NCBI GenBank assembly: GCA_045541215.1
Contig: JAZQIR010000007.1
Location: 79,167 to 143,166, forward strand
Origin: Candidatus Nanosyncoccus sp.
Lineage (GTDB): Bacteria; Patescibacteriota; Saccharimonadia; Saccharimonadales; Saccharimonadaceae
Reading direction: 5' to 3'
Length of the DNA stretch: 64,000 nucleotides
Under the pieces are notes generated by a model. The model made no database searches and was not told where the DNA came from. It was given only the letters and a program-made list of their open reading frames with translations. Below are positions 4,548 to 61,601 of the stretch, one piece after another; the stretch's first letter is position 1; the number at the start of each line of letters is the position of its first letter. A program made the translations under genes and the position numbers.

Positions 4548-6116
4548 TCAACACCCCAAATACTCATCAGTTTTTCCCACCAGCACCAAAATCCCAGGCA
4601 TAATCAGAATCTGAAGTGCATTCGGAATCCCCGAGAAAAAGATTAATGTCACCCCATATGCCACCACAAGACTCAGCACCATCCCACTCGCTTCACGATT
4701 TTTCAAAATCGTTTTCACCGTCATTACCACCAAAATCACAAATAGAAAAACGCCAATCAAGCCAGTTTCTAGTAGCAAAGAAGCATATTCATTCTGTACA
4801 ATTTCTTTTGGCGCCGGAGAAAGTCCATTATCATATAATGCTTGCCCAGCTCCACCAATTCCCACCCCCACCAAAGCCGTCTCAAAATCTTTTTGCCAAA
4901 TTTCTAACGCCGCCTTTGCTAATCGCAATCTAGTATTAGTAGATTCCGCCACATATCCGTCAAAAACCGCTCCTTTAGTCACATCAGAAGCACTGTCGTC
5001 ATCTAGTTTACCACCACTACCTACCACAAAACCGACTTTTACCCCACTAGCAGAAGAGTTTTCCACAGGTTCATGAGAGTTTTCCACAACCACTTCATTA
5101 TCTGCCTTTTCGTCTCCCCTAATTTTTATCACACCGAGTGAAAGTTGCTCCAATACTTTTCCTACCCCATCCACATAGGTATCGGAAGTCGGCGAACTAG
5201 CCGCCAGAATCCCCTGCAGATTCAAAGTAAACAAAAACGAAACGACAAATATTCCCAAAGTTTTCAAAATAGAAAAACAAACATTCTTTCTCTCAGTTTT
5301 TTTAGCTCTAAAATAACTAAAGAAAAACATAAACAAAAGTCCCACCACACACGCATAAATCGCCCCCCGCGACAATGTTAGAAACAAAGTTGCTGAGAAG
5401 ATAAAGAATAGTAGGAAGCTGGTTTTTTGCCGAATTTGAGGGACTCCGGAGCGCGGCAGCGCGAGGATGAGCGCGCCGCCCCCGTGGCGACGGGCGGCGG
5501 CGACGCGGCCCGAAAATTGGCAAAAACCAGCTACCACCATTATCGGCGCGAGCAATAAATTTCCCATAAACTGTGGTTCTATGGAAAACCCGTTTGGATG
5601 CGGGAATCCAAACATTCTATATACACACCCATCGCAAAGAAGCGTGATATCCTGAGAAACGCCAACAATATCTAAAACACACTGTACTATGCACCACAGA
5701 CACACTAGCAAAAACGAACCAAAAAACCACCGCCAAAAAATCTTCCAAAACTTTGTATCCAAATTTTCTTTCAGCTCCCAAAAACCAATCACCGCAAAGA
5801 AAAGTAGCCACATTACCCCTATAGTCAAAATCCCCCGCAAAGGATTTAAAGACCAAGCCACGCTAAAAGTTGCAAAAAGCGGGAACAACCACCACAAAAT
5901 ACTACCAAATACTTTCGAAAAAATCCGCGCACGATATTTCTGACAAATCATAACAAACGCCAAAATATCAAACAGCGCCAACCATATTAAAGACAGGGAA
6001 AGTTCAAAATTCATTGTTTCGTTTTCGCCAAAAGAAATAACTGGAAAATAAGAAAAACAAAGTGCCAAAGGCAAAACATACAAAAAACCTTTATATATTT
6101 TAGTCAACTTTTTCAT
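4548..6116 (-). CDS. O-antigen ligase/polymerase-like (Wzy_C) membrane protein
   Basis: Multi-TM; TLSRGA, GVGIGGAG and VQNEYASLLLETGLIG motifs. Confidence 0.8.
   Translation of the reverse strand: MKKLTKIYKGFLYVLPLALCFSYFPVISFGENETMNFELSLSLIWLALFDILAFVMICQKYRARIFSKVFGSILWWLFPLFATFSVAWSLNPLRGILTIGVMWLLFFAVIGFWELKENLDTKFWKIFWRWFFGSFLLVCLWCIVQCVLDIVGVSQDITLLCDGCVYRMFGFPHPNGFSIEPQFMGNLLLAPIMVVAGFCQFSGRVAAARRHGGGALILALPRSGVPQIRQKTSFLLFFIFSATLFLTLSRGAIYACVVGLLFMFFFSYFRAKKTERKNVCFSILKTLGIFVVSFLFTLNLQGILAASSPTSDTYVDGVGKVLEQLSLGVIKIRGDEKADNEVVVENSHEPVENSSASGVKVGFVVGSGGKLDDDSASDVTKGAVFDGYVAESTNTRLRLAKAALEIWQKDFETALVGVGIGGAGQALYDNGLSPAPKEIVQNEYASLLLETGLIGVFLFVILVVMTVKTILKNREASGMVLSLVVAYGVTLIFFSGIPNALQILIMPGILVLVGKTDEYLGC
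5418..5531. repeat. GC-rich palindromic element inserted in-frame (114 bp), copy 1
   Basis: Imperfect terminal inverted repeats GCTGGTTTTTTGCC/GGCAAAAACCAGC around a GC-rich core; core homologous to the reverse complement of 6628-6744. Confidence 0.7.
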
Positions 6117-7320
6117 TCACCTCCTTGTCAAGTTTTTTCACAGCTGACTTCACAAATTCCGTGATTTCATGGTCAAATCTAGAAACACTAAATTTCTCTG
6201 CACTTTTAGCGACTTTTGCTCGATCAAATTTCATTTTCTCAAAAGTCAAAATTGCTTCAGAAAGGGAATTAACGTTTTGTTTCTCAAACAAAACTCCATT
6301 TTTTCCATCTTCAATGTAGTCCAAAGCTCCGCCTTCACCAAATGCAATCACTGGACAACCTGCAGCCAATGCCTCTACCGGTGCAATTCCAAACGGTTCC
6401 AAACTCGGAAAAATATAACCTTTTGCCTCCGCAAGATATTTTGCTAATTCTTCCCTCTTCATTAGTGGCAAAAACTTAACAAACTCACAATTCCCTGCCA
6501 TTTTTACAAGTCGCCTATGCTCCGGCCCTTCACCTACCACAAGAAGTTCCCTTTTGAGCCTCTTACATGCTTTCACAACCAAATCTAACCGTTTCCAATT
6601 TACTTGCCGAGAAGTGGTAATGTAGTAAGGAGTCGAGAAGATGGCTCTCGGACACGGGTCACTCGCTCCCGTCGTCACGGGGCTCGTGCTCTCATTCTCG
6701 GCCGTAGCCTCCGAAAGGTCCTCAAGCCGTCTTTCTCGACTCCTAAATTCATCAATCTCCACGGGCGGGTGAATCACGATCGCATCACGATGATAATACT
6801 TAACAATCAACTCCTTCGTATATTCCGAAATCGTCACAAATTCATCTACCCTCTGAGCTGCCTCAAAGTCTGCCCGTCTTAATGGTTTCACTAATAGTTT
6901 AAAGAAAAATCTCACCATCGGGTTTAAAACTCCAAACCCAGGATTTTTTACGTAAATATCATAAAGTTGCCAATAATATTGCGTCGGTGCATGACAATAA
7001 GACACGTGTATCGCCCCAGGTTTAGTCACACGTATCGCCTTTGCTTCCGCTCCAGTCACCGAAATTACCAAATCATAATCAGATAAATCAAGATGAGAAA
7101 ACCATTTCTGTCTCAAAGGCCCTAGAACTCTCCTCATAAAAACCGGAAAAATTTGTAACCACCCCGTCCTGACATCCGCATCCAAAAACCAATCAATTCC
7201 CCGCCTAGAATATTTAGAAGTATAGATTGGTGCCTTTGGATACAATCGATGTATTTCTAGTAGCACTTTTTCTGCTCCCCCTACATTTGTCAGCCAATCA
7301 CAAACTATCGCCACTTTCAT
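6100..7320 (-). CDS. Glycosyltransferase family 4 (GT-B)
   Basis: MKVAIVCDWL..GGAEKV; FPSLEPFGIAPVEALAAGCPVIA. Confidence 0.93.
   Translation of the reverse strand: MKVAIVCDWLTNVGGAEKVLLEIHRLYPKAPIYTSKYSRRGIDWFLDADVRTGWLQIFPVFMRRVLGPLRQKWFSHLDLSDYDLVISVTGAEAKAIRVTKPGAIHVSYCHAPTQYYWQLYDIYVKNPGFGVLNPMVRFFFKLLVKPLRRADFEAAQRVDEFVTISEYTKELIVKYYHRDAIVIHPPVEIDEFRSRERRLEDLSEATAENESTSPVTTGASDPCPRAIFSTPYYITTSRQVNWKRLDLVVKACKRLKRELLVVGEGPEHRRLVKMAGNCEFVKFLPLMKREELAKYLAEAKGYIFPSLEPFGIAPVEALAAGCPVIAFGEGGALDYIEDGKNGVLFEKQNVNSLSEAILTFEKMKFDRAKVAKSAEKFSVSRFDHEITEFVKSAVKKLDKEVNEKVD
6628..6744. repeat. GC-rich palindromic element inserted in-frame (117 bp), copy 2
   Basis: Inverted repeats AGGAGTCGAGAAGATGGCT/AGCCGTCTTTCTCGACTCCT; core CCCCGTGACGACGGG matches CCCCGTGGCGACGGG of copy 1 in the opposite orientation. 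Confidence 0.7.
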
Positions 7321-18883: not shown

Positions 18884-19073
18884 CAGGGGAACCTGTGGAA
18901 AACGAAGGGCGGAAGATGAAATTAAATGGTGATTTATATCTGTAAATCACCTTTTTTATGCATCAATTTCGAGGTTCTTTAACCTATTTCGTACCAAAAT
19001 GTCCTTTTCGCTCGCCCCTTGGGACGCGAATAGCCGGAGGCTAACGAGATCTCCTTTTTCTAACCTGTTAATT
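18884..19073 (-). pseudogene. Remnant of an LSR gene 3' end with a 33-bp insertion (19011-19043)
   Basis: Aligns to 10289-10446; fused at 19073 to the backbone-gene fragment. Confidence 0.85.
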
Positions 19074-61410: not shown

Positions 61411-61601
61411 TAAGTACGGGTGGTTGCACATGTTTTTCTAACATCCTAAAATGATTTAAAATTTTAACACGTATATTCCAGACGGACCGGACAGGTTCGT
61501 CTCCTTTAGAAGACGGTTCTGCCCGCGTCCCTGCGTATGACGTGCTTAAAATTTTAAGTCCACGATGTTAGAAAAATATGTGCGACCAAGGCCCGCACTT
61601 A
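61411..61601 (+). ncRNA. 191-nt rod-like RNA candidate (6S-like or palindromic element)
   Basis: 24-bp helix 61422-61445/61564-61587 with 2 G-U pairs, outer helix 61411-61421/61591-61601, AT-rich centre, GC-rich apex. Confidence 0.4.

Follow-up and report, generated by a model that had tools for sequence, protein, structure and literature searches.

Two hairpin elements in neighbouring genes

The window analysed here is a 64,000-nt stretch of DNA from Candidatus Nanosyncoccus sp. (C7:79167-143166 in a genome of 880 kb and 32 contigs with a GC content of about 40%), and the close homologues of its proteins belong to Candidatus Saccharibacteria. Two neighbouring minus-strand genes in this window each contain a GC-rich hairpin, termed element A and element B. 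The host of element A is an O-antigen-ligase-family ORF of 522 aa (4548-6116, minus strand), assigned from its homologues and from Pfam PF04932 (Wzy_C). The hairpin occupies window 5417-5532, and its core sense lies on the plus strand, so that the element is antisense to the host gene, in which it reads as ...AGFCQFSGRVAAARRHGGGALILALPRSGVPQIRQKTS.... The GC-rich core of 76 nt (5438-5513, plus strand; GA...GA) is recognized both by nhmmer and by a covariance model (105.9 bits), and comprises a GGG/CCC helix, a hairpin P2 and a long hairpin P3. In the predicted fold, the copy-specific 5′ arm of 21 nt, AGCTGGTTTTTTGCCGAATTT (5417-5437, plus strand), pairs with the 3′ arm of 19 nt, AAATTGGCAAAAACCAGCT (5514-5532, plus strand), which the host frame reads as AGFCQF. 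Element B (window 6628-6744, core sense on the minus strand) lies in a GT4 glycosyltransferase ORF of 406 aa (6100-7320, minus strand; assigned from its translation and orthologue alignments). It is sense to this gene and is positioned in the linker joining the two Rossmann-like halves, where it reads RSRERRLEDLSEATAENESTSPVTTGASDPCPRAIFSTP. Its core, at 6648-6723 on the minus strand, is of the B-type subfamily (found by nhmmer; covariance model score 73.8 bits, E = 1e-23). In core-sense orientation the 5′ arm is at 6724-6744 (minus strand; plus-strand sequence AAGCCGTCTTTCTCGACTCCT; placed by the fold and by comparison with other alleles) and the 3′ arm at 6628-6647 (minus strand; plus-strand sequence AGGAGTCGAGAAGATGGCTC; placed by the fold). 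From the translation of the ORFs, the ligase insert would contribute the peptide stretch ...SGRVAAARRHGGGALILALPR... and the GT4 insert ...LSEATAENESTSPVTTGASDPCPR....

Both elements had been proposed in a first-pass annotation as homologous GC-rich palindromes inserted in frame in neighbouring genes, and their positions stand with slightly corrected ends. The GC profile agrees with that description, with values of 0.64-0.71 for element A and 0.56-0.60 for element B against about 0.3-0.45 in the surroundings. The minimum free energies are -73.9 kcal/mol for element A (z -5.6) and -62.9 kcal/mol for element B (z -6.4), and 0 of 200 shuffles fold as well as either element. As the annotation had noticed, the two cores align only after one of them is reverse-complemented, and the closing stems show no sequence relationship.

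A genus-restricted repeat family

Elements A and B are copies of an undescribed, genus-restricted, structured repeat family. A search using blastn and three rounds of nhmmer, seeded with element A alone, returns 15 copies in this genome (A, B and 13 more), and a covariance model built from 13 copies finds 17. With this model the family is detected in 23 of the 25 genomes sampled from the genus, each with 1-34 copies, and the 16 genomes representing other genera of the order contain none; the genome-wide search suggested by the first-pass annotation thus yields further copies both in this genome and across the genus. When one genome per species is scanned, an exact 24-base pattern matches only metagenome-assembled genomes (MAGs) of Candidatus Saccharibacteria from the ruminant gut (buffalo, goat and similar). 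The same exact-pattern scan of IMG/VR matched no viral contig, and carriage by phages was rejected on this result. A cmscan of window 5300-6900 against Rfam 15 at E <= 10 gives only chance-level matches, to LPR10 and mir-1909. [quoted passage not shown]

Architecture and fold of the core

All copies share one architecture. A copy-specific closing stem, with a modal length of 20-22 bp, is followed by a symmetric, tandem GA/GA internal loop and a GGG/CCC helix, which lead into a three-way junction carrying P2 and P3; the complete hairpins measure 113-128 nt. P2 is a short hairpin, UCC-GGA-GCGC GGCA GCGC-GA-GGA, and P3 is a long hairpin ending in CCCGUGGCGACGGG. Across 101 aligned copies, standard pairs fill 96.7% of cells compared with 72.8% in shuffles, and 26 of 28 pairs are changed on both sides. 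The covariation score is 0.616, compared with 0.17 in shuffles and 0.06-0.11 in slid-partner controls; the alignment was fitted to the model and the covariation numbers are somewhat inflated, but the margin is still large. Sequence bias in the stem is confined to its inner ~4 bp (5′-side YTTC and 3′-side GAAA), giving the junction consensus ...YTTC|GAGGG...CCCGA|GAAA....

The cores fall into A-type and B-type subfamilies and a long variant, in which a 36-nt module is nested in the P3 loop (C32:118214 and C2:6395). A near-identical module, GCTCGCCCCTTGGGACGCGAATAGCCGGAGGCTAAC, is located at window 19010-19045 on the plus strand, where it stands solitary (GCTCGCCCCTTGGGACGCGAAT and a small hairpin) within the remnant of a serine-recombinase island. 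The first-pass annotation had regarded the 33-bp insert at 19011 as possibly related to the two palindromes; the relationship holds, but the insert is a nested sub-module and not a degenerate copy of element B. The hairpin of the module shows a compensatory change (TAGCC/GGCTA versus TTGCC/GGCAA), a partial copy is present at C20:2138, and the module may be mobile in its own right.

Location in genes and comparison of orthologues

The insertion sites of 95 distinct copies (15 in this genome, 80 in relatives) were compared, a copy being scored as in frame when a stop-free frame runs across the hairpin and 120 nt on either side. By this measure 67 of the 95 copies are in frame and stop-free, with 38 antisense to the host frame, 27 sense and two ambiguous. 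The moderate surplus of antisense copies fits the number of open frames, which is four of six in element A and three of six in element B. For the remaining 28 copies, in no case do both flanks match a single ORF of this genome (G000), or one flank has no match in it; where both flanks are matched, one falls at the end of a gene and the other at the beginning of the gene that follows, and such copies are therefore intergenic. None of the 95 copies is seen to split a gene. The hosts in this genome are aminopeptidase N, PriA, DNA polymerase I, PheT, TruB, a P-type ATPase, the GT4 and ligase-family proteins, GyrA, in which the copy lies in an N-terminal extension, and a LeuRS-like ORF identified by its motif. 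Further aminoacyl-tRNA synthetases and translation factors appear among the putative, motif-identified hosts in relatives. Selection keeps only the intergenic copies and those that lie in frame and stop-free in permissive loops of proteins, essential proteins included.

Many orthologues of the two host proteins lack the segment, whereas in others the same stretch of nucleotides is present but read in a different frame or orientation. In GT4, empty alleles have a linker of 9-10 aa, and the filled ones differ in frame or orientation. The empty loops of the ligase are 26 aa (78 nt) shorter than the loop with element A, approximately the length of the core. Indels at the element sites span roughly 26-43 aa, a range that brackets the ~38 aa expected in the first-pass annotation. 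The GT4 and ligase sites are occupied in several frames and both orientations and are sometimes empty, which rules out an ancestral segment as well as a conserved peptide. Together with the copy number and the frames, these indels bear out the proposal that coding sequences are invaded in frame by an undescribed repeat family, the ends of which conserve structure rather than sequence. Across many lineages, inserts recur in the same protein loops and have differing arms; for example, about 20 of 60 genomes of the genus have an insert in a loop of valyl-tRNA synthetase (ValRS), some of another core family.

The closing stem

The stem is locus-specific and apparently partly host-derived, and it does not represent a family-wide terminal repeat. 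No two of the 95 distinct copies share an arm, and beyond the inner ~4 bp the arms are unrelated between copies, so that no family-wide terminal repeat is conserved. The core of element A is 100% identical over its 76 nt to that of the polA copy (C20:10802-10877), but the arms of the two copies differ. Regarding target-site duplications, we compared three junction layouts in 83 copies, and the longest direct matches equal those of a permutation control; a 7-bp direct repeat, GAAGAAG, occurs once only, in genome G005, and is not general.

Native residues of the host protein align with one of the arms at four loci. The ValRS of G005 reads YKLT[EEVTKSSS+core]EEDGFVTSLIVSTT, and the empty allele in G071 reads YKLAEDSDGPVHSLIVSTT. 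In the LeuRS-like gene of G012, the arm spans the conserved AEI(D/E)F motif, which is AEIEF there and AEIDF in this genome. The arm in a gene of G011 that is MnmA-like by motif encodes SDNS in comparison with native DSNS. Lastly, the arm in ligase allele P0128 covers the native LLLFVF, which lies outside the element in allele P0124; these two alleles have 93-96% identity in the DNA on either side of the element. Relative to empty alleles, the net insert is mostly 81-105 nt, below the 113-128 nt of the hairpin. Peaks were sought at the length of the core, of the core with one arm and of the whole hairpin, and the values spread over 63-144 nt because the sites are variable loops. A ValRS loop in G047 (L066) contains a hairpin of arms only, AAGAGTCAGAGA...TTTTTGACTCTT, with no GC-rich core, which is possibly a relic after core loss.

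Inheritance, exchange and inversion of the core

Cores are exchangeable or invertible while the arms stay in place. Some sites are inherited: the site of element A is shared with G021 (L012) and with the P0124 contig, both of which have homologous arms, and the copy at C7:46407 is common to this genome and G004, with arms that differ by compensatory changes. At C2:6371, this genome and G017 have homologous arms around cores of different subfamilies. The GT4 alleles of this genome, P0050 and P0010 have an equal length of 171 nt and homologous outer arms, AGGAGTCGAGAA/TTCTCGACTCCT, the homology with the arm of element B covering its outer 12 bp; the core is inverted in P0050 and P0010 relative to this genome. 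Homologous gene conversion was considered as the sole cause of identical cores and rejected, since it cannot swap dissimilar core subfamilies between non-homologous arms, and this implies a process that treats the core as a discrete unit.

Two further loci show other centres at sites related to those of the family. An intergenic, nested hairpin of 200 nt at C2:4334-4537 (-80 kcal/mol) has a different GC-rich centre, and the orthologous spacer of G021 (L013) holds a copy of the present family with homologous outer A-run and T-run arms. In the ligase orthologue of G017 (L003), the loop corresponding to that of element A contains a 280-nt stretch that folds at -130 kcal/mol, with long arms (FKKQNNKN... 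/ ...KFLLFYFF) around yet another core; the same protein loop therefore hosts several element families in different species.

The strand under constraint

Isolated single stem mismatches flanked by at least three Watson-Crick pairs were counted, with G·U and A·C treated alike. On the core-sense strand there are 42 G·U and 11 A·C mismatches (p = 2e-5, an approximate value because the copies are not all phylogenetically independent). By class, the G·U and A·C counts are 14 versus 6 in sense copies, 10 versus 2 in intergenic copies and 18 versus 2 in antisense copies. The excess is thus strongest in the copies antisense to their host gene, which indicates that constraint on the fold acts on the sense strand of the element rather than in the host mRNA. 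The asymmetry suggests a single-stranded form specific to one strand, be it single-stranded DNA or a transcript of the element itself, and argues against a regulatory role in host mRNA.

Candidate enzymes

The first-pass annotation had suggested looking for a transposase of the REP-associated tyrosine transposase (RAYT)/TnpA type, with REP denoting repetitive extragenic palindromes. The corresponding Y1_Tnp domain (PF01797) is found in one of the 25 genus genomes, which is not the present one, in a search that did not extend to other transposase families, and a Y1/RAYT driver was rejected on its absence from the other 24. Genes with an RVT_1 domain are present in 19 of 25 genus genomes compared with 3 of 16 from other genera. 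Three genomes rich in the element (G010-G012; 16-33 copies) lack them, which makes the link to the element weak. One of the two RVT_1 matches in this genome is a reverse transcriptase of the diversity-generating retroelement type (407 aa; C32:3143-4363) with the motif of that type (VIGNVTSQVFSN; VIGNVTSQ) and YVDDF; similar reverse transcriptases of ~390 aa are present in 19 of 25 genus genomes and 3 of 16 others, and the enzyme is a weak candidate for the mobilizer. The second match was discarded as lying on a plant Ty3/gypsy contaminant contig. There, an ORF of 850 aa (C15:2-2551) combines a zinc knuckle, an aspartic protease, a reverse transcriptase (YIDDIL) and RNase H, as in a plant Ty3/gypsy Gag-Pol, and the contig is probably feed-plant contamination of the MAG.

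Origin and mode of movement

Taken together, we consider it somewhat better than an even chance that elements A and B belong to a non-autonomous, genus-restricted selfish repeat resembling the Rickettsia palindromic elements (RPEs), which is translated as part of its host proteins and combines a mobile core with a stem obtained from the target sequence. Under this explanation, the moving part would be little more than the core, extended by no more than a few inner stem pairs, and movement would proceed via a strand-specific single-stranded intermediate, either single-stranded DNA or an RNA copy. The second arm would be made by fold-back or template-switch copying of the target flank, or an existing flank would be overwritten. 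The arms would afterwards be held complementary by selection or by conversion within the hairpin, and existing hairpins could serve again as landing sites. The strict form of this mechanism, in which only the ~76-nt core moves as a specific single strand lacking terminal repeats of its own, in which the stem is copied from or overwritten with the target flank, and in which cores are replaced or flipped within existing hairpins, is put forward tentatively and has, in our judgement, about one chance in three of being correct.

Several observations weigh against movement of the core with a target-derived stem. In about nine comparisons (including #27, #35, #45, #58 and #89), the net insert has about the length of the whole hairpin, as would be expected had both arms arrived together with the element, and the narrow distribution of arm length, with its mode at 20-22 bp, would also fit arms carried within the mobile unit. 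The native arm is not on a constant side of the core, lying 3′ in ValRS of G005 but 5′ in ligase P0128 and in the LeuRS-like gene of G012. A rule that the native arm is always 3′ of the core sense, as in ValRS of G005 and G006, was therefore contradicted by the latter two loci and dropped; core flipping may erase any such polarity. Some 'empty' alleles could also be partial deletions of filled ones that mimic a native arm, no fresh insertion was found beside a near-identical empty allele and the junctions are not resolved to the base. Searches for Y1 and RVT_1 brought forward no candidate that stood out as the mobilizing enzyme. Finally, it is from conservation of the reading frame that transcription and translation of the in-gene copies with the host gene are predicted.

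The length observations would also be explained by a conventional MITE, the whole hairpin of which is transposed in trans by a transposase and the arms of which are fast-diverging terminal inverted repeats that stay complementary. Co-evolution of the arms and the YTTC/GAAA bias of their inner 4 bp agree with this explanation as well. However, no two of the 95 copies share arms, even where cores are identical, no target-site duplication exceeds the permutation control in any of the three architectures, and the arms overlap conserved host residues at four loci. Homologous arms flank different core subfamilies, Y1 transposase, the transposase family that was searched for, is absent from 24 of the 25 genus genomes and no partner insertion sequence (IS) was seen, so a MITE of this kind appears unlikely. 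A role in the service of the host, with the hairpins acting as RNA pause, terminator or stability signals or as protein-binding sites in DNA, is less probable still. It draws on the constrained fold, on the persistence of copies with compensatory changes at orthologous sites across species, and on the intergenic copies, which often lie between a stop codon and a promoter-like TATAAT and are flanked by A and T runs. Most in-gene copies are antisense, though, and in these the strand under constraint differs from the mRNA (18 G·U versus 2 A·C); presence at a given site varies among close strains and species, genomes of the one genus have anywhere from 0 to 34 copies, and the insertions are in unrelated housekeeping proteins.

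An intron-like or bypassed element, cut out of the transcript by cleavage and religation at the stem or skipped by the ribosome as is the 'byp' of yeast mitochondria, would profit from a long perfect stem that brings both junctions together, and the first-pass annotation had raised the question of splicing. All 67 in-gene copies keep the frame and are stop-free, and 0 of 95 split a gene. This is the pattern expected of a translated segment, the only kind to require such a filter, and not of an intron or a bypass. Antisense copies, in which the fold of the core differs, make up over half of those in genes, and no ribozyme or intron family of Rfam is matched, which makes this explanation very improbable. 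The remaining alternative, that the segments were never inserted but represent old, GC-rich portions of the proteins, could appeal to orthologues from other species that carry the segment at the same place. It is already refuted by the distribution of the copies, and we assign it practically no weight: many orthologues are empty (the 9-10-aa linker of GT4 and the ligase loops shorter by ~26 aa), and the same nucleotides occur in unrelated proteins in at least four frames and both orientations and also between genes, in agreement with the first-pass annotation, which had taken the segments for insertions.

Comparison with known systems

MITEs are characterized by terminal inverted repeats common to the whole family, by duplication of the target site and by a related IS, and REPs are extragenic sequences of 20-40 bp tied to a Y1 (RAYT) transposase. 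The present family resembles MITEs, REPs with RAYT, bacterial interspersed mosaic elements and the Correia and enterobacterial repetitive intergenic consensus (ERIC) repeats in being small, non-autonomous and hairpin-forming, with many copies, some of them in ORFs. The elements described here differ in their length of ~115 nt, their mostly intragenic position and their lack of a family-wide terminal inverted repeat, a target-site duplication or a Y1 transposase in this genome. A partial likeness to integron attC sites and the ends of IS200/IS605 is that structure matters over sequence and that one strand must fold, which fits the G·U asymmetry. However, attC has conserved outer boxes and a variable centre, whereas the present family has a conserved centre and a variable outer stem. 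Y1 is absent here (an integron-type integrase was not searched for), and the likeness would be in logic only. The mobile GC clusters and 'byps' of yeast mitochondria are GC-rich palindromic elements that enter coding regions of an AT-richer genome; byps break the reading frame and are bypassed by the ribosome, in contrast to the present copies, which always keep the frame and are bacterial, not organellar.

The closest functional analogue would be the RPEs, palindromic repeats of ~100-150 bp in a reduced genome, many of which lie in frame in unrelated housekeeping ORFs and are apparently tolerated as extra peptide (PMC10969869). The hairpins of 113-128 nt and the 67 of 95 copies in frame in ORFs are comparable. 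RPE families are defined by shared sequence, and each codes for a conserved peptide in one frame (PMC10969869). In the present family, by contrast, only the 76-nt core is conserved, the stem is unique to each copy and apparently partly host-derived, and at least four frames and both orientations are read with no conserved peptide. The in-ORF fraction is also higher (67/95), the fold is constrained on one strand and the phylum is another. On the published description, membership of an RPE family is not supported. Long near-perfect inverted repeats are also known from protein-coding genes in the mitochondria of Nematomorpha, where the arms are host coding sequence and conversion or template switching has been proposed to keep them identical (PMC6649704). 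These palindromes share no GC-rich structured apex core, do not form a dispersed family, are mitochondrial and encode conserved residues in both arms. In the family described here, one arm matches native residues in alignments at four loci, and other comparisons fit two new arms. Creation of the stem by copying of the target, followed by conversion or selection, would be analogous to the proposal for Nematomorpha.

Where selfish DNA survives in ultra-small symbionts with nearly no non-coding DNA is an open question; here, it is apparently inside proteins, with ~70% of the copies in frame in genes such as gyrA, polA, priA, pheT and the LeuRS-like gene. The family is a natural source of variable protein loops, and its 26-43-aa GC-rich indels in marker genes of Saccharibacteria MAGs are a trap for annotation and alignment. 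The lack of terminal repeats, target duplications and a recognizable transposase, combined with stems that are apparently partly host-derived, makes it a tractable case for the origin and maintenance of palindromes in coding DNA. It possibly offers a new route of transposition that uses a folded single strand. If movement of the core alone were true, it would have no counterpart among described bacterial repeats, with no terminal inverted repeat, target-site duplication or dedicated transposase detected, and the loops of essential proteins would be continually reshaped in an ultra-small genome.

Other repeats in the genome

A second hairpin repeat family is represented in the window at 61456-61557 (C7:140622-140723), with a core of ~74-78 nt (CACGTATATTCCAGACG...GGTTCG...GTCCCTGCGTATGACGTGC) and 12-bp arms of AT only. 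Additional copies occur at C1:3679, C1:62882, C1:101510, C10:64632 and C7:44236, together with one at C7:17363-17556 that has long arms and a folding energy of -115 kcal/mol. An earlier candidate for a '191-nt rod-shaped RNA' overlaps the copy at 61456-61557 and is therefore a repeat and not a single-copy RNA gene. Finally, a ValRS ORF on contig C28 (10274-10924 region, downstream) and ORF C28_-_0_2672 share an acidic insert, ...HDSESETGNFGEESPERCDFDDREPSTLRN... and ...HESESETGNFGEDSTERCDFDDRATRTLRN..., respectively; its presence in two unrelated proteins probably marks a third in-frame repeat family.

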